DNA from: Candidatus Eiseniibacteriota bacterium
GTDB lineage: Bacteria > Eisenbacteria > RBG-16-71-46
Assembly: GCA_041483195.1 (NCBI GenBank)
Contig: JBGPFC010000011.1
Location: 39,211 to 103,210, forward strand
Length of the DNA stretch: 64,000 bases
Direction: 5' to 3'
The notes under the pieces were generated by a model. That model ran no database searches, had not been told where the DNA came from, and saw nothing but the letters and a program-made list of their open reading frames with translations. Each line of letters opens with the position of its first letter. Within the stretch, counting starts at the first letter, position 1. Below are positions 5,934-55,918 of the stretch, piece by piece. Position numbers and translations under genes: made by a program.

Positions 5934-5940
5934 GACCGTC

Positions 5941-6336
5941 TCAGTGACCGCCGCACCCGCAGCCGCCGCCCCTGGCGGAGGCCTGGGTCGCGTCCGCTGC
6001 GCCTGCGTGCGCATGGCCATGCCCGTTGCCGCATCCGCACTCGCGCGCGGTCACGTTCGGGTTGTTGATGGTGAAGCCCTGCGCCTCGAGCGTCTCGACG
6101 TAGTCGATGCTGACGCCCTCGAGCATCGGCGCGCTCTGCGGATCCACCAGCACCTTGACCCCGCCGAACTCGCCGATCCAGTCGCCGTCCTCGGCCTGCG
6201 GCGCGAGCGACATGCCGTACGATGGACCGGAGCAGCAACCCTCGCTCACGTGAACGCGGAGCCCGAACACCGGCTCCTGCTGCTGGGCGATGATCTCGTT
6301 CAGCTTCCGACTCGCGACGTCCGTCACGGTCAGCAT
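5941..6336 (-). CDS. HesB/IscA-family Fe-S cluster assembly accessory protein
   Basis: MLTVTDVA..., GCCSGPSY, IDYVETLEAQGFTINNPN...CGCG; GGAGG RBS before ATG 6336. Confidence 0.9.
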   Translation of the reverse strand: MLTVTDVASRKLNEIIAQQQEPVFGLRVHVSEGCCSGPSYGMSLAPQAEDGDWIGEFGGVKVLVDPQSAPMLEGVSIDYVETLEAQGFTINNPNVTARECGCGNGHGHAHAGAADATQASARGGGCGCGGH

Positions 6337-29489: not shown

Positions 29490-30257
29490 TCACCGATACA
29501 GGCTCTTCAACGCCCCCCAGGTGCGATTGAGGGCCGGCGTCGGGCAGGTGCCGCCGGTGCATAGCTCAGGCGACCCCGGCCCCGGGTCGGTATAGGAAGC
29601 GAACTCCGCGCCCTGCCAGCTCACGACGTTCCGGAGGGCAGGATTGCCCAGGAAGGTGCTCCCCCCCACCGAGTTCGGGTTCTGCGTCAGCCTCACGGAA
29701 TTCAGAACGATGCACATGCCGGCCTGACATCCCGCGCACGAGCCGCCACCCACGCTCTTCGCGTCGTCCATCGTGATCTTGAACGAGTAGGTCTCCTGTC
29801 CCTCGGGAACCGGGCCGGCCTCCTCCCTATGGATCGCGCAGATGACCTTCATGCGCACGCGGTTTGCCCCGCTGAACCCGATCGAGTAATTCCACGCACC
29901 GAGCGCCCGGCCCGCCCAGGAGTCGAGACAACTGGCGGGGCCGGACGTGAAGTCGAACGACAGGCTCACGGAATTCTGGCGGCACGTTCCGGCGTTCTTG
30001 AACTGCCACCAGTCGGGGACCGTCGGGCACGCCGCCAAGAAATCGATCACGATCTCATTGCCGTTGAGCGAATCGATTCCCGCCGGCGCGACGAACGAGC
30101 CCACGAGGGTGTGGGCACCGGCATTGGTGAGGCAGGCGGACATTTCGTTAGCCGCCCCGAAGGCACCGCAGTCATTCCAAGAAAGATTGATGCCCGCGGC
30201 AGCCGCGGGGGCAGCCGGGCACAATATCAGCGCGAGCAACAGCAGGTGGCGCGACAT
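29490..30257 (-). CDS. Secreted Cys-rich hypothetical protein with C-terminal TWGxxKxxYR tail (family copy 1)
   Basis: Signal peptide; GINLSWNDC...PDWW...CR...SCAGC...CIVLNSV; ends PALNRTWGALKSLYR. Confidence 0.85.
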   Translation of the reverse strand: MSRHLLLLALILCPAAPAAAAGINLSWNDCGAFGAANEMSACLTNAGAHTLVGSFVAPAGIDSLNGNEIVIDFLAACPTVPDWWQFKNAGTCRQNSVSLSFDFTSGPASCLDSWAGRALGAWNYSIGFSGANRVRMKVICAIHREEAGPVPEGQETYSFKITMDDAKSVGGGSCAGCQAGMCIVLNSVRLTQNPNSVGGSTFLGNPALRNVVSWQGAEFASYTDPGPGSPELCTGGTCPTPALNRTWGALKSLYR

Positions 30258-30402
30258 TTCCTTGAGGACCGGCGTGACTGAATGGCCGGGGGGTCCGGCG
30301 GGAATGATACTCCTCAGGACCGGGCGAACAGCGGCCCGATTCGCGATACGAGCTCTTCACCTCGCGCCGCGACTCCGCGCCATCCTCACCGCGAATCTGC
30401 GG

Positions 30403-31269
30403 CTAGCGGTAAATGCTCTTGATCGCCCCCCACGTGCGATTGCGCGCCGGCACGATCGAACACAGGTCGCCCGCGGAGCCCTGCCAGCGGATGCAGCGGT
30501 TCGAGGCCGTGTCGGTCACGAGCTCGGACGCGTCCCCGTTCGGCCCCTCGAAGAGCTTCGCCGAGAGCAGCTCGAGCGTCGCCGGAATGTTGCATCCGCC
30601 GCAGCTGATCGGGCCGGTGGTCTTGAACGGGTAGAGCCTGAGCCAGAACAGCCGGTACTCGTTTCCGGCCGCGAGCGGCACCGCGCTTCCCGTCGAGAGC
30701 TCGACCAGCCCGTGGATCTGCGCGCTGTGCGAGCCGCCGAGCCGCGGGCTGGGCACGTCGTAGCTGGAGAACGTCACGCCCGCCTGCGCCTGCCAGGGAT
30801 CGATGCAGGTCGCGACGTTGAACACGCTGAAATCCGCGCTGAAGCCCAGGCTGTGTTCGCGGCACTCGCCCACGCCGAAGCGCCACCAGTCGGGCAGCGT
30901 GGCCGAGTTGAGCGAGACGTCCACCCGGAACTCGACGCCGTGCAGGCCGGCCGGCATGGGCTTCGACGTCACGAGCGAGCCGATCATCACGAAGCGGGTT
31001 CCGGTGCTCGAATTGCACGCCCAGCTCTGAAACGCGGTCCCGCCTTCCGGCCAGCACTGGTCCCATGAAAAATTGAGGGCGTCGGCGCGCGAGGGGCGAG
31101 GGGCGAGCACGGCCAGCGCGGTCACGAGCAGGGCGAGCGGCGCGATCGCGGCGCCCGCCGCGAGCGGGGCGCGCGCGCGCGGAGCGGGCGCGAGGCTGCC
31201 GCGCGGCGCGCGCGCCACCGCCCGAGTGACCTCGCCGAGGTGCACGATGGGAGACGAACCTGAGGCCAT
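30403..31269 (-). CDS. Secreted Cys-rich hypothetical protein with TWG tail (family copy 2)
   Basis: LNFSWDQC...LPDWW...CR...CIDPW...SCGGC; ends PARNRTWGAIKSIYR; TACAAT 9 nt before ATG 31269. Confidence 0.82.
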   Translation of the reverse strand: MASGSSPIVHLGEVTRAVARAPRGSLAPAPRARAPLAAGAAIAPLALLVTALAVLAPRPSRADALNFSWDQCWPEGGTAFQSWACNSSTGTRFVMIGSLVTSKPMPAGLHGVEFRVDVSLNSATLPDWWRFGVGECREHSLGFSADFSVFNVATCIDPWQAQAGVTFSSYDVPSPRLGGSHSAQIHGLVELSTGSAVPLAAGNEYRLFWLRLYPFKTTGPISCGGCNIPATLELLSAKLFEGPNGDASELVTDTASNRCIRWQGSAGDLCSIVPARNRTWGAIKSIYR

Positions 31270-44500: not shown

Positions 44501-45810
44501 CGCTGGTAGTAGAACACGGTCTGGTTCCACTCGAATGGGACGGTGAGCGTGTCGGCCGGAGAGTTGAAGTAGTTGAAGTTTCTTTCGTAGCGCCGCGTGT
44601 ACGGATACGACGCGAGCACCGGGGGCGTGAGATTGTTCCAGCCGCTCTTCGGCGGGACGCGCAGCCCGACGCGGGGCGGATCCACCACCGTCGCGTACAC
44701 GAAGTCCGCCTCGCCCCACGAGCGCTGCGCGTGCGAGATGACGGGCTGGCGGTAGGCGAGCCCCGAGCGCTCCCACCAGCTCTGCTCGTACACGAGGATG
44801 CGGTCGCCCGATGTGAAGAACCCGTCGCCGTCCACGTCGTCCACCTCGATCGGCAGCTCCAGCGTGACGTAGGGCGGATTGGGCGCCGCGACGTCCGGGA
44901 TGAACTCGTGGCGATGCACGCTCACCTGCGCGATCGGCACGTTCACGGGAAATCCGACGGCGATGAGCGGGTCGGCGTCGAGCGCCCACACGCCGGTGGA
45001 GTCGAGCTTCACGCGAACTTCGGGCGCGCGCTCGTCGAAGCCGGCGGCGCTCGCCACGCCCGGTCTCGTCGCGCGCTCGAGAAGGGACCGATCGAACAGC
45101 CCGCGCGCGGCGAGCGCGGGACGCGGCTCGCGCCAGCGTGCCCCCTGCTCGTAGTTGAGCACCGTGCCGCGCAGCACCGGCTCCCAGTGACGGTCCTGCG
45201 GAGCCGGCGCGAGCGAGAGACCGAGCCGCCCGAGTGCAGCGCCCACGAAACGGACGCGCACCGTGAGCGAACGACGCGACCAGAGCCGGCCGGTCGCGAC
45301 GTCGTACCGGAAGGGCTGAAGCGTGATCTGCACGACCCGCTGGCGGCGGATGGTGAACGGCTCGCCGACCTCGACCGCGGAGAGCGGCCACGACCCGTCC
45401 TGGATGGCGGCCACCGGCTCACGACCCGGAACCACCCCGAGACCGGCCGGATCGTCGTGGAATACGGCGCGCTCGCCGAGCGCCAGCTGGAGCCCGTCAC
45501 GAACGTCTTCACCCGCACCGTCCACGATGCTCGCGAGCGCCTGCGCGCCCGGCGGGATCGCGATCAGCGCGGTCGCGAACGGAAGGCGCGGCCGGCCCGG
45601 CGTGTCGAGCAGCGTGAGGCCCGGGACCAGGATTTCGGCGCGACCGTCCTCGCCCCCCGGTCGCACCACGTACGGCGCGATGTCGAGACGCAGCGTCACG
45701 CCCCCGTCGTCGGCCGCGATCAGGCGTGCCGCCGATGCGTGTGCGAGAGGGGCCGTGAGCGCGCAGTAGAGCGCGAGGAGGGTGGCCGCGGCGCGCGGCG
45801 CGGACTGCAT
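41524..45810 (-). CDS. Peptidase C25 (gingipain/PorU-like) protein with propeptide and C-terminal FlgD-Ig/T9SS-type domain
   Basis: PGRPRLP propeptide motif, DYLLIAP, FVLLVGD, DLFLGRLPV, NYQGHA (His), FTAFAC (Cys), YTLLGDPA, C-terminal FPNPF...NGVYFYRL. Confidence 0.85.
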   Translation of the reverse strand: MQSAPRAAATLLALYCALTAPLAHASAARLIAADDGGVTLRLDIAPYVVRPGGEDGRAEILVPGLTLLDTPGRPRLPFATALIAIPPGAQALASIVDGAGEDVRDGLQLALGERAVFHDDPAGLGVVPGREPVAAIQDGSWPLSAVEVGEPFTIRRQRVVQITLQPFRYDVATGRLWSRRSLTVRVRFVGAALGRLGLSLAPAPQDRHWEPVLRGTVLNYEQGARWREPRPALAARGLFDRSLLERATRPGVASAAGFDERAPEVRVKLDSTGVWALDADPLIAVGFPVNVPIAQVSVHRHEFIPDVAAPNPPYVTLELPIEVDDVDGDGFFTSGDRILVYEQSWWERSGLAYRQPVISHAQRSWGEADFVYATVVDPPRVGLRVPPKSGWNNLTPPVLASYPYTRRYERNFNYFNSPADTLTVPFEWNQTVFYYQRPETLRFETNDLDNTRPAGLAFTWIGRLSTEDHIVGGAVRNGLSQLTTVVDSAYFFGKVTVTRGGAIPGTALTEGLTNRLSLWGKNDLSPPDPSTNYFSNVALNYFDVGYWRGYKALRGYLPCNSGTSAGDFEILATGFSDSSQIRVYDVTDSTDIRRLTGVRFESAGPGIGARFQDNAAPGRPRRYVAFDQAKTVPIAKYSAVTQADAVNLYDRAAGDYLLIAPQAFIPAMAPLIALRRSQGLDVVVAPLEAVDDVFNGGRKSPYAIKRFIRYAYDNWDARFVLLVGDGSEDPQNFSGLSSKDWVPTQRVLGPVIVSVANESFLEAVVCDPWYVWCVDCSDPGPANKVPDLFLGRLPVNSASEAAAVANKLVSYENVTPDQAWRREMVLVSDDQYSGESQFGGGQNTSAYCRRSGESVFLELNTECRRIILEEGGLLQSDPELFNLSYYLPNRPQDIIGCTQPPPPDTCRCDRTAFQTRGQLVAKPALMSRLNAGRLWWNYQGHANERVLSHEDLYLNMPTHDDKADLQNDGRPFLFTAFACHPNAFGHWQEYGSTRGTPSLGEDLVDLPGRGAIASWGSSGYELLPSDNSLHLNTAFARALFADPPRDQYLGERGARVVLGEVIAKAELDYWPGPRNSVYERDVMVTYTLLGDPATRISIGSPEAVVTANGQPVTSGQTVTLQAPGDTLQLEADIASNARIDSLVVQRSVGGAPPVTVPPSSYTVTPVFPDTLDPTGEGRRFHIGYRDSLIANSFRYTLRSADRYGLVGLFDVVFAFQTVLRADGLFVADGDQVAPNAAMALTVLSPAPLVPGTDLTLKVNGQRQPFSAVPANNDTTRRQWTLTWTHAPFPVGNDVVELDASGGATRYHSFRVSVTGGEIRLENALAFPNPFNDDRGTQFSFNLVSATSADVTIRVFTVSGRLIYERTERALQPGYHQLPWNALDAEGAPIANGVYFYRLLARNGASSTFHQGSFVKLRKPRHVADVAAP

Positions 45811-45963: not shown

Positions 45964-47343
45964 ATGGCGCAAGCACGCCGCAAGGGAGTGCTGCTGCTTT
46001 TCGCAATCCTCGCGTCCGGGGCTGGGCAGCTTGCAACGTGGCCCGGGCCAACGGCGGCCGCACGGAAGCCGAGCCGCACCGTCACGCTGCCGGAGTCCGT
46101 CCTGGCGGTGGTGGGGGGCGGCCGGCAGATCACGCGGTCGCGCTTTCTCGCTGCGTGGAAACAGGTCGAACCTCCGGCCCGGCCCGATTCCCTTACCCCG
46201 CAGGGCGCCTCCCGGTTTCTGCGACTTCTGGTGGGCAAGGAGGCGCTGGGTGAGGCGGCGCTCGGCCAGCATTGGACCTGGACCGACGACGACAGCAGCG
46301 AATACCGCGGCCTGCGTGACCGCCTCGTCATGAAGGCGGAGCTGGACTCGGCGCTCGATGCCACGCGCCGCACGCTCGCCGCACGAGGCGATTCGATCTC
46401 GGATCCGCGGGCGATCGGGGTGGTCGCGCGCGACAGCCTGGTCGCGCGCCTGCACCCGCGCTACGACGACGCGCTGCTCGAGCGCGTCGCGAAGGGCTTC
46501 GCCGCGGTGCCGAGGCCCTCGCCGGATTCATCCCTCACATCGCAGCTGCGCTTGCTGGGGCTCATGCCGCGCGTGGATTCACTCGATCGCGCGCGACCGC
46601 TGGTGCGCACCGACGCCGGTGACTACACCGTCGCCGAGCTGCTCGATGCGTGGCGGCACTTCAATCCGCTCTACCGCCCGCGCATCGATACCGCCGAGCA
46701 GGTCCGCGACCTTGTGCGGAACGGGCTCTACGAGCGCGAGCTGCGCCGTGACGCCGTAGGGCGGCGGATCGAGGAATGGCCAGAGGTCGCGGCCGCGCTG
46801 GCCCGGCAGCGCGAGTACGTCGCCGTGAGCCACCTCGTGGCGCGCAACGTGTACGCGCGAATCGCCGAGGATTCGGTGACGCTCAGGCGGCATTACGCGG
46901 CGCACCTCGATCGGTGGGCGCTTCCGCTGCGCGTCGCGCTCACGCGTCTGGTGTTCGCCGATCGCGCGAGCGCGACGCGCATGGCGCTCACGCTGCGGGA
47001 GGAGGCCGAAGCCGACAGCCTGGTCGCGCGCGCGAGCCGGGGCGGAGTCGACTATCGCACGATCGTGAGCGAAGAATCGGACAGCACCCTGTTCCGCCGC
47101 GCGCTCCGAGCTGGCGCGGGCGCGGTGCTCGGGCCCGACTCGTCGCGAGGCGGCTGGGGGGTGGCGCGGGTCGCCGAGGTGCTCCCGGGCCGGGACCGCA
47201 GCTTCGCCGAGGCCCGGACGATGGTGCATCACGAGTGGTACGGCCAGGAGGGCGAACGGCTGATGGTGGCGCTGCTCGACAGCGTGCGGGCCGCGACGCC
47301 CGTCACCGTGAACACGCGCGCGCTCGCGAGGCTTCTGCCCTGA
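45964..47343 (+). CDS. SurA/PrsA-like exported chaperone (degenerate parvulin domain)
   Basis: Signal peptide, VLAVVGG..QITRS, helical chaperone repeats, VLGPDSSRGGWGVARV...RSFAEAR. Confidence 0.6.
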   Translation: MAQARRKGVLLLFAILASGAGQLATWPGPTAAARKPSRTVTLPESVLAVVGGGRQITRSRFLAAWKQVEPPARPDSLTPQGASRFLRLLVGKEALGEAALGQHWTWTDDDSSEYRGLRDRLVMKAELDSALDATRRTLAARGDSISDPRAIGVVARDSLVARLHPRYDDALLERVAKGFAAVPRPSPDSSLTSQLRLLGLMPRVDSLDRARPLVRTDAGDYTVAELLDAWRHFNPLYRPRIDTAEQVRDLVRNGLYERELRRDAVGRRIEEWPEVAAALARQREYVAVSHLVARNVYARIAEDSVTLRRHYAAHLDRWALPLRVALTRLVFADRASATRMALTLREEAEADSLVARASRGGVDYRTIVSEESDSTLFRRALRAGAGAVLGPDSSRGGWGVARVAEVLPGRDRSFAEARTMVHHEWYGQEGERLMVALLDSVRAATPVTVNTRALARLLP

Positions 47344-47394: not shown

Positions 47395-47462
47395 TCTCCG
47401 CTGCTTCGGCTCCCCGGAGTCGTTCCCGAGCCCGCGCTGCGCCAACTCTTCCGGAGATTCGC

Positions 47463-49295
47463 ATGTCCCTGCGTGGCCTTGTTCCCCTGGTCCTCGCCGT
47501 CGTCTGCGCCATCGGTCTGGCGCCCACCACCCGCTCCGCGCCCGGGCGGCCTTGGCAGCCGCCCGCCCATCCCACGAAGGGCACGCTCACTCCGGCCCCG
47601 CATGCGAAGAGGCCGACGCGGTACATCGGCGACGAGCCGGATACGGGGCAGTTCCTGCCCGACTCCGTGGTGCTCGCGCGCGTGAACGATCGCGTGATCC
47701 GCGCGGGTGATTACGTCGAGAGCTTCTTCTACTCGTACGCCGAATTTCGCCCGCGGCCCGACAGCGCCGGGCGCCTCGAGTTCCTGAACAGCCTGATCAA
47801 CAAGGAGGTGCTGGGGCTCACCGCGCGCTCGATCCCGCATGCCGAGGGGTTCGAGGATCGCGTGGTCATGCGCGAGCACTCTCAACGCGTGCTCTCGAAC
47901 GTGCTCTTTCAGCGCGCGGCAATCGACTCGGCGACGGTGACCGAGGACGAGATTTTGAAGGTTTACGAGCAGTATAAGTACCGCCAGCACATGCGGCACA
48001 TCCTGCTCCCCGACCGCGCAACCGCGGACCGGGTTCGCGCGGAGTTGATCGCCAGGCGCACCACCTGGAAGGACGCGGTGCGGAAATACTCGATCGCATC
48101 CGACAAGGAGCGCGACGGCGACATGGGCTGGAGCACGCGCATGTCCCTCGACCCGGCCCGCGCGGAGCAGGTGTACGCGCTCGAGCCGGGTCAGACCTCG
48201 GCCGTGGTCTCCGACCCGGACGGCTACCACCTGTTTCAATCCATCGAGCGCCAGACGGTGGAGCCGCCGGCGTTCGAGGGGATGCGCAGCTTATTGCGTG
48301 ACCAGATCCGCAACTACAAGATCTCAGAGCGCTCCAGCCGGCTCCAGGAGCAGCTGGGCCGCGAGATCGGGCTGGAGTGCGACAGCGCGAACATCGCGTG
48401 GGCCTGCGCGCAGTTCACGCCGACGATGGGGACCAGCGACCCCGGCCATGGCGCGAGCCTCAACATATCGACCATCGTTCCGGATTTCGCGCCCGCCGAC
48501 ACGTCGCGCGTGCTCGCGCGCCACAAGTTCGGCCAGTTCTCGCTGAGGCAGTTCATGGACGAGTACACCGCGCTCCAGCCGCTGGTGCGGCCCAACGTGA
48601 ACGAATTCGACTTGTTCCGCGGGCAGGTCATCGCGATGGTGCTCCAGCCGTGGTTCGTGGAGCTCGCGCTCAAGCGCGGGCTCGACAAGGACCCGAAGGC
48701 GGTGCAGCAGATCGAGAGCCGCCGCGAGGAATTGCTGGTGGAGCACATGTACCAGGATTCCGTCCTGAGCCGCATCTGGATACGCCCGGAGGAGCGGAAG
48801 AAGTACTACCAGGATCACCTGCCCGGCTACGTCACCTTCGACCAGGTGGGCTACGCGGCGTTGGTGAGCAACTCGCGCGCGGGCGCCGACTCGCTCGCGG
48901 CGCGCCTGCGCGCGGGCGAGAAGGCCGAAGACATCCTGCGCGCCGATTCGCTGATGGGCATGAACTCAGGCTCGATCCAGCAGCGCTCCTCCGCCGATCA
49001 CGGTACGCCATACTACAAGGTGCTGTTCGAGGAGATGCGCCCCGGCCAGGTGGAGGTCGAGGGCCCCGACCCGCACGGCGACTACCTCGTGCTCCAGGTG
49101 CGCGCGCACGACCCCGGACGACAGCTGTCATTCGAGGAGGCGGAGTCGATGGTGGACGATGCACTCCAGAACATTCGTTCCGAGGAGATGCTCAAGACGA
49201 TGCTGGCACGCCTCAAGAAGCGCTTCACGATCGTGACCCATCCCGAGCTGCTCGGACGCGTGCTCATGGTGGATCCCTCGCTGCTCCACGATTAG
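47463..49295 (+). CDS. Exported PpiC/parvulin-type peptidyl-prolyl isomerase (SurA-like)
   Basis: VLARVNDRVI, MRHILL...KYS...DGDMGW...LEPGQTSAVVSDPDGYHLF; second degenerate parvulin domain. Confidence 0.8.
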   Translation: MSLRGLVPLVLAVVCAIGLAPTTRSAPGRPWQPPAHPTKGTLTPAPHAKRPTRYIGDEPDTGQFLPDSVVLARVNDRVIRAGDYVESFFYSYAEFRPRPDSAGRLEFLNSLINKEVLGLTARSIPHAEGFEDRVVMREHSQRVLSNVLFQRAAIDSATVTEDEILKVYEQYKYRQHMRHILLPDRATADRVRAELIARRTTWKDAVRKYSIASDKERDGDMGWSTRMSLDPARAEQVYALEPGQTSAVVSDPDGYHLFQSIERQTVEPPAFEGMRSLLRDQIRNYKISERSSRLQEQLGREIGLECDSANIAWACAQFTPTMGTSDPGHGASLNISTIVPDFAPADTSRVLARHKFGQFSLRQFMDEYTALQPLVRPNVNEFDLFRGQVIAMVLQPWFVELALKRGLDKDPKAVQQIESRREELLVEHMYQDSVLSRIWIRPEERKKYYQDHLPGYVTFDQVGYAALVSNSRAGADSLAARLRAGEKAEDILRADSLMGMNSGSIQQRSSADHGTPYYKVLFEEMRPGQVEVEGPDPHGDYLVLQVRAHDPGRQLSFEEAESMVDDALQNIRSEEMLKTMLARLKKRFTIVTHPELLGRVLMVDPSLLHD

Positions 49296-49344
49296 CGGAG
49301 CGCGCCTCGCGCGCGGCCAGGGGGCGTCAGCGGGTTGCGCTTGT

Positions 49345-50340
49345 TCACCGCCGCCGGCGTGGCGGCGTCCACGGCACGCGCGCGGCGAAGCGTCGCATCG
49401 GGTCGCACACCTTGCCGCCCGGGGAATTCCATGCGACGAACCGGCTGCCGCGATTGACCTGGGGCGCATCACCGAAATCGTATGCGATCCCCGCGACCGC
49501 CCACTCGATGCACATCGGCCGATCGCAGCCCGGGGTGTTCGCGGCCGGGCGCGGCACGAGCAGGCGCGCGTACACGTACTGCGTGCCGCCCTTCACGGCC
49601 ACCGCATCGGCCTTGACCATCGCGAGGATCATCTGCAGCTTGCCGCTCGCGCGCGTGAAGCTGTACTCGGCGCGGGCGATCTTCGCTTCGGGCCACGGGG
49701 AGTCGAACCCCGAGACCTGGGGCAGGTACTGCAGCTCGAGGCCGTGAGGGTTCTCATGATCGCCGAATTGCCAGTGCGCGCCGAGGGTATCCGAACCCGC
49801 CGCCCAGAAGTACACCGTGGCCGTGAGCGCGAGGAGATGATCTGTGCCGCGCCCCGGATCGAAGCTCATGTAAAGCGTATCCTTGCTCGAGGTGTCGCCG
49901 CACGCCGCGCTCAACACCTCGGAAGCACGGGGCTGACCGAACGGCGCTCGCCAGGCGAGGTAGATCCGCGCATCGGGCGAACCGCTCGGCTTCGGCCACG
50001 ACGGTCCGCGCGGCAGCCCTCCGTGCAGGGCGGTGTCCCCCCGGGTCCGTGCGAGCACGCTCTCGGGGCGCATGGGTGAGAACGTGGAGTTCACTTCGGA
50101 CTGGGACACCGAGGGACGCGAATTCGCAGGCGGGAGATTCGATGGCGGCGAGGGTGTGGTCCCGGCGGCCGCCAGAATTGGGCGCGATCCAGTCGCTGCC
50201 CCGGGGCCGGGCGGATCTGCGAACGTGCACGCGAAACATGCGGAGAGGCCCAGCAGCGCGGCGGCGGCGCGGGCGCGGATCACGCGCCGCAGCGGCGGGA
50301 GCATTGCGTCGTGAGCGGTGCTCGTGGATTGGCTCGGCAT
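49345..50340 (-). CDS. Divergent paralog of the TWG-tail family lacking the tail (start uncertain)
   Basis: IYLAW...CGDTSSKDTLYMSF...YVYARL...GCDRPMCIEW...FVAWN...C aligns by eye with the family core; Pro/Ser-rich N-terminal linker. Confidence 0.65.
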   Translation of the reverse strand: MPSQSTSTAHDAMLPPLRRVIRARAAAALLGLSACFACTFADPPGPGAATGSRPILAAAGTTPSPPSNLPPANSRPSVSQSEVNSTFSPMRPESVLARTRGDTALHGGLPRGPSWPKPSGSPDARIYLAWRAPFGQPRASEVLSAACGDTSSKDTLYMSFDPGRGTDHLLALTATVYFWAAGSDTLGAHWQFGDHENPHGLELQYLPQVSGFDSPWPEAKIARAEYSFTRASGKLQMILAMVKADAVAVKGGTQYVYARLLVPRPAANTPGCDRPMCIEWAVAGIAYDFGDAPQVNRGSRFVAWNSPGGKVCDPMRRFAARVPWTPPRRRR

Positions 50341-50347
50341 CGACCCC

Positions 50348-51181
50348 TCACCGATAGAGACTCTTCAAACGGCCCCACGTCATGTTGCGTGTCGGAACCA
50401 GGGCGCAATTCGCGCCCTGGCCTCCCCGCCACAGCGCCCAATTCGCGTTCGCGGGGCCCGGGCTCGAGATGAAGAGATCGCCTCCGGGAGCCCCCGGGGT
50501 GCGCTTCACCTCGATGGAGTTTAACACCAGGCACGCCGACCCCAGGCAGCCGGCGCACGCGGCGAAGCCCGTGGTCCCTCCGTTCAGCAGCGTCAGGCGC
50601 GTGCCGTAGTACATGGCGAACGTATCGAGGGCGCGCTCGAGCCCGGGGGCGACGCCGCACGCCACCTTGATGCGGGCCTGATTCGCGCCTCCGCGCGGCG
50701 AGCCCAGGTCGTACCCCTGGATCTCGGCGACCGCCTCGCCCTGCCACGGATCGGTGCACGTCGTGTTTCCCGAGAAGTCGCCGCTCGCGAGCAGATTCCC
50801 GGAACGGCACGCTCCCGAGGCCGCGAGCTTCCACCATTCGGGAAGCGCGGCGTCGGAGTGCTGGATGTCCACCACGGCGATGATGCCGAGCACGTCGGCG
50901 CCGGTGGCCTGCGGCATGGTGAACGCGAGGAAGAGGTCTTCCTGCCCGATGTTCGCGTCGCAGGGGAAGTCCATGCTGGGGACACCCACGCCGTTCTGCG
51001 CGCAATCGTTCCAGGTCAGATAGATCGCGCCGCCTGCGCGCGCGGGCGCGCCGCGCGCAAGCAGAGAAGCCGTGCAGGCGAGTGAGAAGACGGTTCGCCG
51101 CGCCGCTCCAATCCGCCGAGGCGCCCGTCGAATGACGGCGCGCCCGAATGCCACGAGCGATCGGATCAACGCCGGCGGCAC
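50348..51181 (-). CDS. Secreted Cys-rich hypothetical protein with TWG tail (family copy 3; start uncertain)
   Basis: IYLTWNDC...LPEWW...CR...CTDPWQG...ACAGC...CLVLNSI; ends PTRNMTWGRLKSLYR. Confidence 0.85.
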   Translation of the reverse strand: MPPALIRSLVAFGRAVIRRAPRRIGAARRTVFSLACTASLLARGAPARAGGAIYLTWNDCAQNGVGVPSMDFPCDANIGQEDLFLAFTMPQATGADVLGIIAVVDIQHSDAALPEWWKLAASGACRSGNLLASGDFSGNTTCTDPWQGEAVAEIQGYDLGSPRGGANQARIKVACGVAPGLERALDTFAMYYGTRLTLLNGGTTGFAACAGCLGSACLVLNSIEVKRTPGAPGGDLFISSPGPANANWALWRGGQGANCALVPTRNMTWGRLKSLYR

Positions 51182-51357
51182 AGGCGCTTCACCTGTCTCC
51201 GGGTCCTGTTCCGCGCGGGCCCCGGGCTGCGGGGCGCCCGATCCATGCCGCCCCACCAGGTCACCACGTCACGGCCACCGGCAGGAACGCCGGTGAGCGT
51301 GAGGCAGCCCGCGCACGAGCCGGTGGACTTCTGACTGGACACGGTGACCCTCACCAT
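51166..51357 (-). pseudogene. Eroded/truncated remnant of a TWG-tail family gene (63 aa)
   Basis: MVRVTVSSQKSTGSCAGC...RDVVTWWGG...PARNRTRRQVKRLCR matches the C-terminal third of the family with internal deletions and a mutated tail. Confidence 0.65.
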
Positions 51358-51461
51358 GGGCGTGGCCGGAATCCGGGCTCCGACGTGGCCGGAGACGAGC
51401 GGAGTCGGTCGACGGCCGAACCACGCCGCAAACGATCGCGGCGACTCAACCCACCAATCGC

Positions 51462-51491
51462 AAGGGCGGCCGACAGTAGCCGGCCGCCCTT
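51462..51491 (-). terminator. Hairpin downstream of family copy 4, probable terminator
   Basis: AAGGGCGGCCG-8 nt-CGGCCGCCCTT about 25 nt after the stop at 51515. Confidence 0.6.
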
Positions 51492-51514
51492 TGCGAAGAT
51501 TGCGCGATACGAAA

Positions 51515-52231
51515 CTAGCGGTACAGCGCCTTCAACGTGCCCCACGTCGTATTGCGCGCCGGGGTCACGTTGTTACCGCAGTTCGGGACGCCAGCCTGCC
51601 ACGTCACCCAGTTTCTGTCCGCCGGGTTGCCAATGAACTTGGCGCCGATAGTAAGCGGATTCTGCGTGACGTTGATCGAGTTGAGCACGATGCACGCGCC
51701 GTCGGTGCAACCACCGCACGCACCGGCTCCGAACGACTTCGCGTTGTTGATGAACAGGTTGTTCGAATACACCTCTTGGTCCGTGGGAATAGGGCCCGCA
51801 TCGAGGCGGGACAGCGCCCACACTGCCTTCACCCGCGCCCGATTGGGTGGACCGAACGGAGCCGTGTAGTTGGAGCCGCCCGCGCCACGACCCGCCCAGT
51901 AGTCCATGCAGGGGCCGGTGAATCCCGAGAAGTTCATTGACAGCGAGGTCGGACGGCAGAAACCCGTCCCCATCATCCACCACGAGGGCAATGTGGCGCC
52001 TGAGGTCTGGATGTCGATCACGATCTCGTTGGAGTTGGCCGAGTCGACGCCGGCCGGCACGATGTAGCTCGAGACTGCGATGTTCGTGCCACTGTTGCTG
52101 GTACAGGCGAAAGTGCGCACCGACGCGCCATTAAGGCCGCAGTCGGTCCAACTGAGGTTGAGTCCCGCCGCCGAGGCCATGCCGACCGTCAGAGCGAGGA
52201 GTGCGCCGGTAATCAGGAGCGTCTTCTTCAT
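51515..52231 (-). CDS. Secreted Cys-rich hypothetical protein with TWG tail (family copy 4)
   Basis: GGAGG RBS; MKKTLLITGALLALTVGMASA signal; GLNLSWTDC...LPSWW...ACGGC...CIVLNSI; ends PARNTTWGTLKALYR. Confidence 0.88.
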   Translation of the reverse strand: MKKTLLITGALLALTVGMASAAGLNLSWTDCGLNGASVRTFACTSNSGTNIAVSSYIVPAGVDSANSNEIVIDIQTSGATLPSWWMMGTGFCRPTSLSMNFSGFTGPCMDYWAGRGAGGSNYTAPFGPPNRARVKAVWALSRLDAGPIPTDQEVYSNNLFINNAKSFGAGACGGCTDGACIVLNSINVTQNPLTIGAKFIGNPADRNWVTWQAGVPNCGNNVTPARNTTWGTLKALYR

Positions 52232-52371
52232 TGTTGCCTCCAGGGGACAAATCGCTAGAAAGGGGGACGCAGGTTTTGACTCAGGACGTGGATGCATTCT
52301 GGTTCCGGCCATCACCACCTTCCCTCCAGAGATACCAGTTCGCGATGCTTCGCGGTGCGGCCCGTACTAGA

Positions 52372-53022
52372 TCAAGGACACTTCGGATCGCAGTTCACTG
52401 CCGAATTGCCGGTGAAGTACTCGGTGAGCCAGGCCGACAGGTCGTCCCCGCCCACGCTGCCGTCGCAGGTGTAATCCGCGCGGAGCGGGCTGGTGCCACA
52501 GAAAAACGCGTCGAGCCAGGCCGACAGGTCAGTACCGCCGACACCGACACCGCCGCCGTCGTTATTGAGGTCGAACGTCGGCGCGTTCACGGTACAGAGC
52601 ACCACGCCCTCTGCGAGAATCTTGACGCAATTGGGAGCGGCGCCGCCGCAACCCAGACCGCCCTTGCTCTTTCCCATGATGCTGAAGCACACCGTGCCGT
52701 TGGCAGGGGTCGTCTTGAAGACGCTCTGAAAGTTGCAATCCACAGTCGCATCAGGATCGAGCTGATCGGGGCAGAGAACGACATCACACGCCGAGAAATC
52801 GATCTGCACGAGGGCGCCGTTGATGGGCACGCCGTTGGAGTTGCGCACCACGACGCAGAACGTGCCAATCGGATCGGCGACGGTCCCGTTGCTTCCCACG
52901 ACGTAGATACATCCAGTCGGACAGTCGGACTGCGTGGGATCGGGAACGTTCGCCGCCGCTACGCCCGCGACGAACAAACCGCAGGCGGCAAGAAGCATGG
53001 CCTTGCGAACCAAACCAGTCAT
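52372..53022 (-). CDS. Secreted Cys-rich protein: Ig-like domain plus C-terminal dockerin-like duplicated Ca-binding motif
   Basis: GGAGGT RBS; signal peptide; VVVRNSNGVPINGALVQIDF Big-1-like strand; repeats DLNNDGGGVGVGGTDLSAWL and DYTCDGSVGGDDLSAWL. Confidence 0.8.
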   Translation of the reverse strand: MTGLVRKAMLLAACGLFVAGVAAANVPDPTQSDCPTGCIYVVGSNGTVADPIGTFCVVVRNSNGVPINGALVQIDFSACDVVLCPDQLDPDATVDCNFQSVFKTTPANGTVCFSIMGKSKGGLGCGGAAPNCVKILAEGVVLCTVNAPTFDLNNDGGGVGVGGTDLSAWLDAFFCGTSPLRADYTCDGSVGGDDLSAWLTEYFTGNSAVNCDPKCP

Positions 53023-53194
53023 TGTTGCACCTCCGTAGATGGATCACCCTGTTGCTGAATCGAAGGCAAGGCTCAGTTGCGAGCAATCAGGTCGGGCTGC
53101 GAGCCACCTCCTTTCAACGTCTTCATTTCGAAATTCAATTGGGTGTCAGACGAGGTTAATTGTCGCTTTGGCAAGACCTTCCAAGACGCGAAAA

Positions 53195-53224
53195 ATTCTA
53201 GCGGTCAGGTCCGGCCCCTGTCAA
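53195..53224 (-). promoter_or_regulatory. Near-consensus sigma70 promoter for the dockerin-like/TWG gene cluster
   Basis: TTGACA-18 bp-TAGAAT, about 170 nt upstream of ATG 53022. Confidence 0.7.
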
Positions 53225-53346
53225 GAAGCTTTTTGTTCTCGATCCTCGTCTTGCCACCCCGTTTACGGTGCATTGCCCTTCCCACGCCCCCTAAGCGGGA
53301 AGGGCCATCCCCTGAAGGCCCGGTTTCAGGCCTTAAGTCCCAGCGC

Positions 53347-53422
53347 TGGTGGGCGAAACAGGGCTCGAACCTGTGACCCCTTGCGTGTAAGGCAAGTGCT
53401 CTACCAGCTGAGCTATTCGCCC
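53347..53422 (-). tRNA. tRNA-Val (anticodon TAC)
   Basis: GGGCGAATAGCTCAGCTGGTAGAGCACTTGCCTTACACGCAAGGGGTCACAGGTTCGAGCCCTGTTTCGCCCACCA; 76-nt cloverleaf with encoded CCA. Confidence 0.97.
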
Positions 53423-53661
53423 GAACCCTGGTTCTGCCCGCGATACAGGAGTGAGGCCGGAACGATGACGCAGTAGCCCAGGACCAGCAGCACCGGCGCC
53501 AGGGTAATGGAACCCCTGGAAAGAGCCACGTACCCGGACACCAGGACGGCGACGGCCAAGCCCAACAACACGCTGTTGTGCACCCCCCAGCTGAATCCCA
53601 GGTCGGGTTCGGCCGCCTTGCGCTGCCCGCGTGGCTTCGCGGTGATCCTGCCGTTGCTCAT
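53413..53661 (-). CDS. Small two-TM membrane protein (DUF3098-like)
   Basis: GGAGGA RBS; N..LLGLAVAVLVSGYVAL...SITLAPVLLVLGYCVIVP. Confidence 0.7.
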   Translation of the reverse strand: MSNGRITAKPRGQRKAAEPDLGFSWGVHNSVLLGLAVAVLVSGYVALSRGSITLAPVLLVLGYCVIVPASLLYRGQNQGSGE

Positions 53662-53921
53662 CGTTCCTCCTCCCGCGTCGCGGCGAACACAAATACCGAT
53701 GGCTTCGGGCTGTGCGACCAGTCCGAGACCATCGGCGTGTCTGGAAGCGTGAAGCTCCATGGCACCTACGATCCCAGCGAAGATCGCACCTTCGTGCCGC
53801 CGCCTGCGTGGGGCGTTGAGGTTGATACCCTCGCCCCGCGGCGTGCGGTTCCCGGTTTCTTTTCTGCCTCGTCCCCGTTCGGCCTCCATGCGGGGGCGGA
53901 CACCGACCCGCGGGCGGAAGG

Positions 53922-54806
53922 TCAGTCCCCGGACCCGCCATCTCCGGGCTCGAGACCCGCGTTCAGGCTGCCGGAGCGGAAGCCTTCCAGATCCAGGGTG
54001 ACGTACCGATAGCCGATCCCGCGCAGACCATCGACCACCCGCTCGCGAACCCCGGGCGCGATCAGGCGCTCCAGCTCGGCGAGCGGAACTTCGACCCGCG
54101 CCACGTCCCCGTGATGCCGCAACCGAACCTCGCGAAAACCGAGCGAACGCAGCAGCTGTTCCCCCCGCTCGACCATGCTCAGGTTCTCCCTCGTGATCTC
54201 GGTGCCGTACGGAATGCGCGAGGCGAGGCACGGCGAAGCCGGCTTGTCGTGGCTCTCGAGGCCGTAATGGCGGGCCGCCTCACGCACGTCGAGCTTGGTG
54301 AACCCCAGCTCCGCGAGCGGCGAGCGCACCGCGCGCTCCGAGGCGGCGCGGCGTCCCGGCCGATAATCCGTGAGGTCGTCGGCGATCGTTCCATCGAGGA
54401 TCGCCTCGGCCCCGATGCGCGCCGCGACCTCGCCGAGGCGGCGATAGAGCTCGCTCTTGCAGTGGTAGCAGCGATTCGCCGGGTTCGATCGGAACGCGGG
54501 ATCCGCGAGCTCACCGGTCGTCACGATCTCGACGCGCGCGCCGAAGCCCTGCGCCTGCGCGAGCGCCAGCTCCAGCTCGCGCGCCGCGTACGAATCCGAG
54601 CGCCCGATCACGCCCAGCGCGCGATCCCCGATCACCTCGTGGGCGACGCGCAGCAGCAGGCTCGAGTCCACCCCGCCTGAGTACGCGATCACGGCAGAGC
54701 GCAGCGCGCGCAGCTCGGCGCGCAGCGAATCGAGGCGCCGCCCCCAGCCGAGCGCATCGGCGGGGGCGCGCGCGACGCCGATCTGGATCAGGGAGGGGGA
54801 GGTCAT
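53922..54806 (-). CDS. larE: LarE-family ATP-dependent sulfur transferase
   Basis: AYSGGVDS PP-loop, NRCYHCK, DYRPG, PCLASRIPYG, VRLRHHG and GFRSGSLN motifs. Confidence 0.9.
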   Translation of the reverse strand: MTSPSLIQIGVARAPADALGWGRRLDSLRAELRALRSAVIAYSGGVDSSLLLRVAHEVIGDRALGVIGRSDSYAARELELALAQAQGFGARVEIVTTGELADPAFRSNPANRCYHCKSELYRRLGEVAARIGAEAILDGTIADDLTDYRPGRRAASERAVRSPLAELGFTKLDVREAARHYGLESHDKPASPCLASRIPYGTEITRENLSMVERGEQLLRSLGFREVRLRHHGDVARVEVPLAELERLIAPGVRERVVDGLRGIGYRYVTLDLEGFRSGSLNAGLEPGDGGSGD

Positions 54807-54844: not shown

Positions 54845-55918
54845 CTACGACGGCGGCAGCGGGAGCGAGTCGGAGGCGGCCCCGCTCTCGGTCCCCGCGT
54901 GCAGCGCGCGGGCGGCGCGGATGTTGGCGAGATGCTCTGCGTAGGTCCGCGCGAAGAAGTGACGGCCTTCGCCGCGCGCGACGAAGTAGAGATCGCGAAT
55001 GTCGGGGGTCGGGTCGAGCACCGCCGCGATGCTCGCGCGGCCCGGATTGCAGATCGGGCCGGGCGGAAGCCCGACGTACAGGTAGGTGTTGAACGGCGTG
55101 TTCGAGCGCAATTGCCGCAGGTAGAGACGCGAGCGCGGCCCCATGCCCAGCCCGTACGCCACAGTCGGATCGGCCTGCAGGCGCATGCCTTTCTCCAGGC
55201 GATTCAGGTAGACGCGCGCGATGCGCGGACGCTCCGAGTTCACCTGCGCCTCGGATTCGACGATCGACGCCAGGGTGAGAATCTGGTGGATGCTGAGACC
55301 GAGCGGGAGCGAATCGCGCCCCGCGAGCCCGCGGCTCAGCACGTCGCGCTGGCGCTCGCGCATCGCGCGGAACGCGACCTCGGGCGAGGTGCCGGGCAGG
55401 AACTCGTAGGAGTCGGGCGCGAGGTAGCCCTCGAGCGATGGCGCGTCCACCTTGAGCGAATCGAGGAACGACCGATCCTGCGCGAGCGAATCGAAGGCGG
55501 CGACCGGCACGCCGAGATGGTTCGAGAGCAGCAGGCTCACCTCGCTGAGGGTGAGCCCTTCCGGGATGGTGACCAGATTGAGCCCCCCCATCCCGAGCGC
55601 GAGCGCGCGCAACAGCGCCGGCACCGTGATGCCGCGCGGAAACGCGTACTGGCCGGCCTGGATGTGGCGGTCGAGCCGCATGAGCCGCGCCAGCACCTGG
55701 AACCCGAGGCTGCCGTGCAACAGGCCGACGCGCTTCAGCTCGTCCGCGATCTCGCGCAGGGTCTGCCCGCGCTGAATGAGCACCACGCGGCGATCGTGGG
55801 CCGGGAACGGCCCGGCGGGAAGAAACAGGTCGGCCGCGATCGCCAGCCCGCCCACCACCAGCAGCAGCAGCGCCCAGCGGCGCGGGCGAAACGGGCGCCC
55901 CCGCGGCTCCCCACGCAC
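54845..55918 (-). CDS. mltG: Endolytic transglycosylase MltG
   Basis: VTIPEG, LEGYLAPDSY, LASIVESE, MRLQADPTV, GLPPGPICNPG and LYFVARGEGRHFF motifs. Confidence 0.93.
   Translation of the reverse strand: MRGEPRGRPFRPRRWALLLLVVGGLAIAADLFLPAGPFPAHDRRVVLIQRGQTLREIADELKRVGLLHGSLGFQVLARLMRLDRHIQAGQYAFPRGITVPALLRALALGMGGLNLVTIPEGLTLSEVSLLLSNHLGVPVAAFDSLAQDRSFLDSLKVDAPSLEGYLAPDSYEFLPGTSPEVAFRAMRERQRDVLSRGLAGRDSLPLGLSIHQILTLASIVESEAQVNSERPRIARVYLNRLEKGMRLQADPTVAYGLGMGPRSRLYLRQLRSNTPFNTYLYVGLPPGPICNPGRASIAAVLDPTPDIRDLYFVARGEGRHFFARTYAEHLANIRAARALHAGTESGAASDSLPLPPS

Follow-up and report, generated by a model that had tools for sequence, protein, structure and literature searches.

The operon described here encodes a small secreted protein that combines an Ig domain with a dockerin-fold module, followed by single-domain secreted proteins with a predicted cohesin fold, and we put the chances at about even that Ca-dependent binding of the cohesin-dockerin type joins the former to the latter at the cell surface. 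It forms one run on the minus strand of the window (the whole stretch of 64,000 nucleotides analysed), consisting of a strong promoter, a long conserved leader, gene 1, gene 2, a decayed fragment, gene 3 and gene 4, and its products carry signal peptides (Table 1). The host is an uncultured sediment bacterium (Eisenbacteria). Pfam and NCBIfam scans matched no enzyme family in any of the four proteins, in agreement with the earlier note, which had recognised no catalytic motif in them, and neither the cohesin-like nor the dockerin-like module reached a curated threshold in these collections.

Table 1. Positions (in the window) and supporting evidence of the features of the operon and of a related gene pair.
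Feature	Position	Strand	Evidence or remark
Sigma-70-type promoter TTGACA-18-TAGAAT	53195..53224	-	11/12 consensus positions
5' leader, ~170 nt	53023..53194	-	DNA-level conservation; internal SD-like AAGGAGGTG, real SD GGAGGTG
Gene 1, 216-aa secreted Ig + dockerin-fold protein	52372..53022 (stop codon included)	-	ORF, signal peptide
Ig-like beta-sandwich domain of gene 1 (~residues 26-146)	52585..52947	-	Big_1 and structural matches
Dockerin-fold module of gene 1 (residues 147-216)	52375..52584	-	Two Ca-loop + helix repeats; C211...C215-P end
Gene 2, 238-aa secreted predicted cohesin-fold protein with TWG tail	51515..52231	-	ORF, RBS, structural matches
C-terminal tag of gene 2 (TPARNTTWGTLKALYR)	51518..51565	-	Conservation in 38 sequences
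Decayed fragment of a further cohesin-like copy	51166..51531	-	Open frame holding the 51166-51357 ORF of the earlier note
Gene 3, predicted cohesin-fold paralog with TWG tail TWGRLKSLYR	50348..51256	-	35% identity to gene 2
Gene 4, 331-aa secreted protein	49345..50340	-	Pro/Ser-rich linker and divergent cohesin-like domain; no TWG tail
Second tandem pair of the cohesin-fold/TWG family (29490-30257, 30403-31269)	29490..31269	-	No dockerin-like gene adjoining

The near-consensus promoter claimed earlier for gene 1 is borne out by the number of consensus positions matched, and across 7 aligned orthologous upstream regions its -35 box does not vary, nor does much of the -10 region. Two promoter-like sites were found as against 0.6 expected in shuffles. 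The leader has a mean column identity of 81% over 7 loci, while the proteins encoded there are only 40-47% identical to that of the window, and a GGAGG ribosome-binding site lies upstream of the gene 1 ATG at 53022. BLAST matches to the leader were obtained in 45/61 genomes of the family and in 23/28 genera, and they abut the dockerin-like gene in every case where both are listed. It is present as a single copy in its own genome and corresponds to no Rfam family.

Gene 1 had been described as a secreted Ig-like protein with two Ca-loop/helix repeats, and the ORF, the signal peptide and the AlphaFold model (pLDDT 89.7, pTM 0.85) all agree with this description. The model contains a beta-sandwich at residues 54-146 and helices at residues 163-173 and 192-204. 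No Pfam domain was found in any of 130 gene 1 homologs; among 40 members of the family, Big_1 matches are seen in 16 (best E 3.9e-4). The best structural match of the Ig domain is the MG1 domain of E. coli alpha-2-macroglobulin (4zjg, Z 6.9), with invasin and intimin also among the matches. Foldseek with the whole protein returned nothing at E <= 1e-3, which counts against the dockerin reading of its C-terminal module.

Both gene 1 repeats, DLNNDGGGVGVGGTDLSAWL and DYTCDGSVGGDDLSAWL, are present in the C-terminal module, and the consensus of the family is a duplicated 12-residue loop, D-x-D-x-S/D-G-x-V-x-x-x-D, each followed by a helix DLSxWL. In the 40-sequence alignment G160, D165, L166, D194 and L195 are invariant, and D151, S167, W169, L170, D183, S196, W198 and L199 are conserved in at least 90% of the sequences. 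When residues 147-206 of the predicted module are superposed on the solved dockerin 2vn5_B, the match covers that dockerin in full (56/56 residues, Z 4.8, rmsd 2.3 A, 20% identity), although this Z is modest and the entry ranks only 23rd in a match list dominated by the Ig domain. Also against the dockerin reading is a 3-residue insertion in the first calcium loop of the window's own protein, which has 15 residues (D151-D165) compared to 12 in the family consensus.

At the level of sequence families, matches among the 40 members stay below threshold: dockerin_GC in 7 (best E 6e-4), EF-hand_6 in 3 and Dockerin_1 in 1 (E 0.025). The first of these, NF041540 "GC-type dockerin domain-anchored protein", touches the C-terminal module repeatedly, as no other curated model does; it scores 17.2 bits and 20.6 bits on the module of gene 1, and 20.6 and 21.5 bits on the two dockerin-module copies of the genome. 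Since all scores (17-21.5 bits) are lower than the 29-bit cut-off, proteins of the gene 1 family are not members of NF041540. Neither cohesins nor dockerins turned up when PDB sequences were searched with profiles. The dockerin-like module proposed in the earlier note is supported by the repeat anatomy and the 2vn5_B superposition and by no family model at threshold.

For the body of the tailed paralogs, comparison of the predicted structure points to a cohesin-like, non-enzymatic fold, in line with the cohesin-like partner suggested in the earlier note. The gene 2 model (pLDDT 87.2) was compared with 48,161 PDB chains by VIA-align, and the best 16 rows comprise 15 cohesin entries and one pilin at Z 10.3-8.0, where unmatched models typically reach a best Z of 7-8 according to the method's own note. 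The best row is 2vo8 (Z 10.3, rmsd 2.8 A, 128/135 residues). Cohesins are also the top Foldseek rows (3fnk, 3ghp, 2vo8 and 5nrm), which are weak with E ~6e-4, and in the nearest named ESM Atlas cluster (score 0.84) PF00963 Cohesin is assigned to 16% of the members. The cohesin fold is a common beta-sandwich, and Gram-positive pilins and adhesin domains appear in the same VIA-align list at Z 7-8.3, both of which count against the assignment. No Pfam domain was found in 224 gene 2 homologs, and Pfam Cohesin matched none of 38 members of the cohesin-like family. In these 38 sequences Cys 31, 43, 92, 108, 172 and 175 are invariant and Cys 180 is nearly so, and the earlier count of about 8 conserved Cys is therefore fair.

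The run of homologous genes seen in the earlier note stands for genes 2 and 3 and is weaker for gene 4. Gene 3 is a clear paralog of gene 2 (E 2e-35; 255 bits with the family profile), and since the 5' end of its ORF overlaps the decayed fragment, translation probably begins downstream of 51256. Gene 4 has no similarity to genes 2 and 3 by BLASTP (E 0.92 and 5.0) and is joined to them only by a weak match to the family profile (24 bits, E 5e-5 genome-wide), which spans the whole domain (profile positions 22-223), while most of the family Cys are absent along with the tail. Orthologs of gene 4 stand last in the arrays of L012 (E 4e-30) and L017 (E 2e-18), and by reading it is also present in L024 at 5766-6764. 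What had been called a remnant is indeed a family fragment, albeit a weak one (profile E 1.6e-3) with a decayed tail; the match is confined to a pair of short C-terminal segments, at profile positions 159-180 and 210-242, and the alignment shows a CAGC motif and a degenerate tail.

Genes 2 and 3 both end in TWGxLKxLYR. W230, K234 and R238 are invariant and T229, G231 and Y237 are conserved in at least 90% of the 38 cohesin-like sequences; the gene 2 model shows this region as a low-confidence linker and a short helix at residues 230-237. We considered the tail as a trait of the cohesin-like family, as implied by the earlier labels "TWG-family" and "TWG-tail paralogs", and rejected this, since 33 ORFs of the genome with diverse bodies end in [ST]WGx[LIV]KxxYR-stop; the tail is a genome-wide C-terminal tag and the labels are wrong as family names. 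No Pfam or NCBIfam model matches it, and our literature searches found no description of it. It resembles C-terminal sorting signals (T9SS type A, TIGR04183/PF18962; the tripartite sortase and exosortase signals) in its position at the extreme C-terminus of proteins with signal peptides, and large relatives of the cohesin-like module have a FlgD_ig/Por_Secre_tail C-terminus in its place. In contrast to those signals, the conserved part is only ~10-16 residues long and contains neither a transmembrane stretch nor a beta-sandwich.

The operon is kept across one family of Eisenbacteria-like genomes. The gene pair, which the earlier note had seen in the window alone, is syntenic in no fewer than 21 related genomes besides this one, spread over 10 genera, as a dockerin-like gene directly followed by 1-8 cohesin-like genes (8 tandem copies, the most, in G048). 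According to the place tables of a 151-genome phylum sample, the first cohesin-like gene lies within 125-185 nt of the dockerin-like gene in 19 genomes; further adjacencies come from a partial match (507 nt, G112) and from ORF reading (G066), and the two genes are 1.1-1.2 kb apart in 4 more genomes. At 5 of 11 named-MAG loci retrieved through the dockerin-like family, those of the five closest orthologs, 1-6 cohesin-like genes lie directly downstream on the same strand, and one further locus ends 350 nt past the dockerin-like gene. The syntenic genomes are not independent, because all are kin of one taxonomic family. Within family f1 the dockerin-like protein is present in 56/59 genomes and the cohesin-like protein in 55/59. 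The pairing is not obligatory: the dockerin-like family is found in 6/6, 3/3 and 5/5 genomes of f2, f3 and f8 but the cohesin-like family in 1/6, 0/3 and 0/5, which counts against a pair, as does the lack of a dockerin-like neighbour beside the second cohesin-like pair of the window. Beyond f1, 3 genomes gave no clear adjacency and G065 a weak case.

It is possible, though somewhat unlikely, that these proteins are co-expressed without interacting, as a variable surface or secreted set, with the cohesin-like sandwiches binding a glycan, a mineral or another cell and the duplicated loops merely stabilising the small Ig protein or binding calcium. A tandem copy number of 1 to 8 with a decayed copy, as in fast-evolving surface-protein arrays, would fit such a set, as would the occurrence of each family without the other, the lack of sequence-level cohesin or dockerin membership and a fold also seen, at Z 7-8, in CBM-like domains and in those of adhesins or pilins. 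However, cohesins, and not CBMs or adhesins, make up 15 of the best 16 structural rows, the order kept in 10 genera, in which the dockerin-fold gene leads an array of cohesin-fold genes, is the one that a binding pair would predict, and the cohesin-like module is also found in multi-copy scaffoldin-like proteins.

The cohesin-like family profile matches 2851 cluster representatives at E <= 1e-3, and among the 150 of these that were listed 19 contain 2-5 copies of the module. Such copies occur in large surface proteins built with TIG repeats, and some of these proteins also carry a CBM and end in a T9SS-type domain. In a scan of 9 multi-copy proteins, TIG repeats were seen in 8, a FlgD_ig/Por_Secre_tail domain at the end in 4 and CBM_4_9 in 2; all four further large proteins from G133 and G039 contain TIG repeats too. 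The Ig-dockerin cassette also lies within larger secreted proteins, one of which, 1394 aa in length, has a glycoside-hydrolase-like domain (Glycoamylase PF10091, E 1e-68) and FlgD_ig. The window's own genome holds 6-7 cohesin-like genes (in the profile search, 6 single-domain copies and gene 4) against only 2 with a gene 1-type dockerin module. A dockerin-like paralog on C3 sits among unrelated genes, and the paralog on C26 unites dockerin-like repeats and a TWG tail in a single chain, both of which count against the proposed binding. Weak Pfam Cohesin matches are present on contig C1 (E 0.002 and 0.05), and Dockerin_1 matches elsewhere in the genome.

Both the multi-copy proteins, some of which bear a CBM and a T9SS end domain, and the weak C1 and Dockerin_1 matches would suit an Ig-dockerin protein that docks elsewhere, onto TIG-repeat proteins with 2-5 module copies or Pfam-type cohesins on C1, leaving the small TWG-tailed neighbours as competitors, caps or unrelated cargo; we regard this as improbable, as the conserved neighbours are small proteins, not large ones, and no multi-copy protein of the cohesin-like family was found in the own genome. 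A pilus-like or fibre assembly, with the beta-sandwich proteins as polymerising pilin-like subunits and the Ig-dockerin protein at its tip or base, is very improbable: the genes do form tandem arrays and Gram-positive pilins are among the structural matches (CppA 5xcb, Z 8.3; BcpA 3kpt, Z 7.8; RrgB, SpaD and GBS80), but the pilins are placed under the cohesin block in the VIA-align list and the operon has no sortase motif, isopeptide-domain family match, usher or assembly gene.

Binding between the neighbours, which we prefer, has a close parallel in clostridial cellulosome pairs (e.g. 1ohz, 2vn5, 4wi0 and 3kcp), with a cohesin-fold sandwich (Z 8.0-8.8 to type I, II and III cohesins) and a ~60-residue module of two duplicated Ca-loop and helix segments as in type I dockerins. 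The Ig domain lies directly N-terminal to the dockerin module, as in X-Doc dyads; X modules pack on type II dockerins. Unlike those pairs, the operon proteins lack a sequence-level match to Pfam Cohesin or Dockerin_1 and come from an uncultured phylum with two membranes; those of predicted cohesin fold have a single domain, are rich in Cys and carry the TWG tag in place of SLH or sortase anchors; and the dockerin module, whose docking we infer here, is part of a small non-catalytic protein in an operon devoid of glycoside hydrolases. The best structural matches are non-cellulosomal cohesins, namely 2vo8, 2w1n and 2o4e of Clostridium perfringens glycoside hydrolases and 2xdh of Archaeoglobus fulgidus (Z 10.3, 9.5, 8.6 and 8.1 for this group). 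Parent proteins of non-cellulosomal cohesins and dockerins are, in an excerpt of PMC13487519 citing Peer et al. (2009, FEMS Microbiol Lett 291:1), predominantly non-catalytic, and the operon proteins are like them in this respect, whereas known non-cellulosomal modules are recognisable by sequence and those of the operon are not. Literature searches found no description of a dockerin gene followed by an array of single cohesin-fold genes and a divergent tail-less gene.

We envisage that the C-terminal module of gene 1 would bind Ca2+ and dock onto the cohesin-fold proteins encoded beside it, with the Ig domain and the dockerin working as one unit, by analogy with X-module-dockerin dyads. The short TWG tag would send the cohesin-fold proteins to the cell envelope or hold them there, and they would therefore provide the Ig-dockerin protein with sockets or with a coat.

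The window lies on contig C11 of a genome that measures 4.17 Mb and is 96.8% complete, and the features considered here are collected in the table below. A near-consensus promoter had been claimed upstream of the genes; it is present as TTGACA-18-TAGAAT, matching the consensus at 11 of 12 positions. An Rfam search of 49000-53600 returned tRNA-Val as its sole match. G+C falls to 0.62 at 52001-54000, which covers gene 1, the leader and the tRNA, against about 0.70 in the flanks. Upstream lie genes for two ordinary proteins, one YceG-like and the other a sulfur transferase of LarE type (TIGR00268, 313 bits). All or part of the stretch is contained in 22 sediment-metagenome DNA runs, and no RNA run is listed among the datasets containing it.

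Features of the operon and of its surroundings (window coordinates)
Feature	Position	Strand	Remark
YceG-like protein gene	54845-55918	-	upstream neighbour
LarE-type sulfur transferase gene	53922-54806	-	upstream neighbour
tRNA-Val	53347-53422		upstream of the operon features
Promoter	53224-53195	-	
Leader	53023-53194	-	about 170 nt, between promoter and gene 1
Gene 1	52372-53022	-	216 aa
Signal peptide of gene 1	52951-53022	-	
Gene 2	51515-52231	-	238 aa
Decayed fragment	51166-51531	-	between genes 2 and 3
Gene 3	50348-51256	-	cohesin-fold paralog
Gene 4	49345-50340	-	331 aa
PPIC-type peptidyl-prolyl isomerase gene	47448-49295		converging on operon
PPIC-type peptidyl-prolyl isomerase gene	45964-47343		converging on operon
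PorU-like C25 peptidase gene	41524-45798	-	3.5 kb downstream of operon
Second cohesin-like pair	29490-31269		

The proteins downstream of gene 1 had been described as a run of secreted homologs with a possibly cohesin-like body. Genes 2 and 3 are indeed paralogs (35% identity, E 2e-35), while gene 4 belongs to the run at the profile level only: its candidacy as a plain paralog was rejected because BLASTP finds no similarity, and against the family profile it scores 24 bits over the whole domain, as a distant relative would. The fragment retains just pieces of the C-terminal third of the family. The family has six invariant cysteines and a seventh that is almost so; none of its 224 word-search matches carries a Pfam domain, and its profile gathers 2851 cluster representatives (50% identity) at E <= 1e-3. 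The gene 2 model (pLDDT 87.2) consists of a beta-sandwich (residues 23-211), after which come a linker modelled at low confidence and a short helix (230-237). When this model was searched against 48,161 chains with VIA-align, cohesins occupied 15 of the 16 best rows (Z 10.3-8.0, model residues 20-213), led by 2vo8 (Z 10.3, rmsd 2.8 A, 128/135 residues) and including 2w1n (Z 9.5), 3l8q (Z 8.8) and 3ul4, 2xdh, 6kgc and 5nrk (each Z 8.6), which bears out the suggested cohesin-like fold as far as a predicted model can. A pilus-like fibre built by the operon proteins is a rival explanation, and the sole non-cohesin among these rows is a pilin (Z 8.3), to be set against the 15 cohesins. The top Foldseek rows for gene 2 are likewise cohesins, with weak support, and in the nearest named Atlas cluster Pfam Cohesin is found in 16% of the members. 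By its modelled structure the family is therefore cohesin-fold, whereas by sequence it stands outside the cohesins: none of 38 members matches Pfam PF00963 Cohesin even at E <= 1, let alone at its gathering threshold, and a PDB profile search with the family found no cohesin.

Gene 4 has a long Pro/Ser linker and is devoid of the TWG tail. Its orthologs close the arrays in loci L012 and L017 of other genomes and, by reading, in L024. A lipoprotein anchor was considered for it from a possible LSAC lipobox in the window's copy, and was rejected since the lipobox is missing from the L012 and L017 orthologs.

Gene 1 is predicted to encode a signal peptide followed by a beta-sandwich and two helices, at residues 163-173 and 192-204 (AlphaFold pLDDT 89.7, pTM 0.85). 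None of its 130 homologs contains a Pfam domain. The last 70 residues comprise two repeats, with the consensus DLDGxxGVGANDLSAWLTDF and DYDCSGxVGANDLSxWLTxF in a 40-sequence alignment of the family, each being an EF-hand-type loop of 12 residues (D1, D3, S/D5, G6, V8, D12) and then a helix. D165, L166, D194 and L195 are invariant in this alignment, and D151 and D183 are kept in at least 90% of the sequences. The family consensus thus has the two duplicated 12-residue Ca-loop and helix segments that define a dockerin; in the copy encoded in the window, loop 1 spans 15 residues, three more than the consensus. A structural search with the whole gene 1 model is dominated by the Ig domain (E. coli alpha-2-macroglobulin MG1, Z 6.9), and with this whole-protein query the only match to residues 147-206 among the best 50 rows is 2vn5_B, a complete Clostridium cellulolyticum dockerin, which superposes well over its full length but at a modest Z of 4.8 (rmsd 2.3 A, 56/56 residues, 20% identity). 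We tentatively read the C-terminal module of gene 1 as dockerin-fold, yet it lies outside the Pfam and NCBIfam dockerin families. Gene 1 has no match to PF00404 Dockerin_1 at E <= 1, below the gathering threshold, and one of the 40 family members matches it (E 0.025). Against NCBIfam NF041540 (dockerin_GC), with its 29-bit cut-off, gene 1 scores 17.2 bits, the two own-genome copies of the module score 20.6 and 21.5 bits, and 7 of the 40 members match, every one below 29 bits (best E 6e-4). Big_1 matches 16 of the 40 (best E 3.9e-4) and EF-hand_6 matches three. Foldseek with the whole Ig-dockerin model gave no match at E <= 1e-3, and nothing useful came from a PDB sequence-profile search with the gene 1 family, from a word-based search for longer proteins with the dockerin module alone (weak evidence), or from Pfam and NCBIfam scans of the four operon proteins, which detect no catalytic domain in gene 1.

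The adjacency of the two families in relatives, proposed earlier as a check, is conserved. The dockerin-like family led to 11 named loci in metagenome-assembled genomes: the five closest orthologous loci each have one to six cohesin-like, TWG-tailed genes directly downstream, five more distant ones, often with tandem dockerin-like genes, lack cohesin-like genes, and one ends too early to show its downstream genes. Across a phylum sample of 151 genomes, the dockerin-like family is present in 84 (56/59 in taxonomic family f1) and the cohesin-like family in 59 (55/59 in f1, 1/6 in f2, 1/7 in f4, 1/2 in f5 and none in the rest). The two genes stand head-to-tail, 125-185 nt apart, in at least 19 genomes; G112 contributes one pair, with a gap of 507 nt measured from a partial match, and G066 another, giving at least 21 paired genomes spanning 10 genera, all of them kin and therefore not independent. 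In at least four more genomes the gap is 1.1-1.2 kb. Since the positions are those of the best 150 matches of each family, these pair counts are lower bounds; among the matches listed, the largest cohesin-like array has eight copies (G048). Clear adjacency was seen in none of the three genomes examined outside f1, and three contigs (of G055, G057 and G024) are uninformative on synteny because they stop right after the dockerin-like gene. A rival explanation takes these for co-expressed surface proteins without mutual interaction; it has to be weighed against predicted dockerin and cohesin folds that meet in this conserved order.

The own genome also holds exceptions to this linkage. A dockerin-like paralog on contig C3 has unrelated neighbours, and the second cohesin-like pair of the window has an ABC ATPase upstream. 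A further gene 1 paralog (G000:C26:45426-46223 (+)) combines signal peptide, Ig domain, dockerin-like repeats and TWG tail in one protein; its repeats are more canonically dockerin-like (DQNGNLIVDGPDV..., DLDCDGLVTQADSD...) and its tail is TTWGRLKTIYR. Weak Dockerin_1 matches occur at G000:C11:35246-35311, C3:125976-126137 and C4:98767-98910, in frames of 712, 815 and 1620 aa, the first summing to 31 bits with its neighbours, and weak Pfam Cohesin matches occur at C1:2860-3009 and C1:9034-9303. On account of these matches the genome may hold further cohesin-dockerin proteins, and a further rival explanation is that the Ig-dockerin protein docks on other cohesins; beside it stands the array of cohesin-fold genes directly downstream of gene 1.

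Elsewhere the modules are built into larger proteins. The cohesin-like module is present in two to five copies in 19 of the best 150 of the 2851 representatives, and nine such multi-copy proteins, when scanned, showed TIG repeats (8/9), a T9SS-type end domain (4/9) and CBM_4_9 (2/9). The Ig-dockerin cassette also occurs within larger proteins, among them one of 1394 aa at locus L029 (G044:C5, 2587-6771 (+)) which carries the cassette at about residues 874-1071 together with Glycoamylase PF10091 (E 1e-68), a weak CBM30 match and two FlgD_ig stretches. These multi-module and hydrolase-like layouts, which resemble scaffoldins or enzymes, were seen only in other genomes. The operon itself does not have the makeup of a cellulosome or scaffoldin, its cohesin-fold proteins being single-domain and its dockerin protein lacking a catalytic domain.

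The leader of gene 1 is conserved beyond its protein, with 81% mean column identity over seven loci, against 40-47% identity for the proteins of these loci. Within a near-invariant stretch of more than 50 nt lie an SD-like AAGGAGGTG and a hairpin, GGCTC...GAGCC. The leader is single-copy in the own genome and belongs to no Rfam family; BLAST matches to it were found in 45 of 61 family genomes, representing 23 of 28 genera, and each directly adjoins the dockerin-like gene wherever both are among the matches. RNAalifold gave a compensatory change at one pair only, so the predicted structure is unproven. The signal peptide of the gene 1 family is also unusually conserved (MTGLVRKATLL in most of the 40 sequences, with M1 and R6 kept in at least 90%), and, taken with that of the leader, this conservation may stem from constraint on the region where translation starts.

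In the earlier note the TWG tail served as the hallmark of the paralog family, a view that has to be given up. The pattern [ST]WGx[LIV]KxxYR ends 33 ORFs of the own genome whose bodies are diverse, and it is therefore a C-terminal tag common to many proteins and not a trait of the cohesin-like family; a crude rule for signal peptides, one that placed some starts wrongly, accepted 30 of the 33. The tail is 10-16 residues long and is modelled at low confidence as a short helix, devoid of a T9SS-type beta-sandwich; the T9SS type A C-terminal domain (TIGR04183 / PF18962; about 70-80 residues) has no match on genes 2-4. Large relatives of the cohesin-like module end in a FlgD_ig/Por_Secre_tail domain in place of the tail. 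The PorU-like C25 peptidase downstream of the operon is the second of the genome (Peptidase_C25 E 4e-66; FlgD_ig end domain) and scores 226 bits against T9SS_sortase NF033707, whose cut-off is 420. This paralog is syntenic with the operon in all six genomes examined, lying 4.6-8 kb downstream on the same strand in the five others (four genera), where the best PorU match is a separate gene, above the NF033707 cut-off in three of the five. Such synteny could mean either that the gene order was inherited or that the peptidase is functionally tied to the TWG tag.

The textbook example of a high-affinity plug and socket between proteins is the cohesin-dockerin pair, described mostly in cellulosomes of Gram-positive anaerobes. 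With the folds predicted from models and the synteny seen in genomes, we infer that the operon encodes a non-cellulosomal cohesin-dockerin-type pair, in which TWG-tagged cohesin-fold proteins would sit at the envelope as sockets, with the Ig-dockerin protein as plug; Ca2+ binding, pairing and envelope location are all presumed in this proposal. Non-cellulosomal cohesin and dockerin modules are already known; PMC13487519, with reference to Peer et al. 2009, describes their parent proteins as mostly non-catalytic. In contrast to those, both modules here lie under every curated threshold, the layout runs from one dockerin gene through an array of single cohesin-fold genes to a divergent tail-less gene, and the operon is set apart by its host phylum, by the TWG tag and by cohesins that are Cys-rich and single-domain. 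Our literature search found no paper on Eisenbacteria and dockerin, nor on C-terminal sorting in Eisenbacteria.

A bolder proposal, which we consider improbable, is that this double-membraned phylum wears a minimal plug-and-socket cell coat. The strong promoter would drive the whole operon by way of a structured leader RNA whose conservation exceeds that of the proteins, the uncatalogued TWG tag would sort single-domain, disulfide-rich cohesins, the neighbouring PorU-like C25 peptidase might process the tag, and the sorted cohesins would, as sockets, trap an abundant Ig-dockerin protein in a Ca-dependent manner. If true, cohesin and dockerin would here serve to build the envelope itself and not an enzyme complex.

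Both predicted folds occur here in sequence families that escape all curated models, in a phylum of uncultured sediment bacteria that possess an outer membrane, and in an operon that encodes no enzyme and uses a C-terminal tag of its own. Should the two proteins bind, protein engineering would gain further orthogonal pairs of binders, the cohesin-dockerin principle would extend to envelope building in diderm bacteria, and work on the function of the TWG tag would have a concrete set of cargoes and, in the PorU-like peptidase, a candidate partner.
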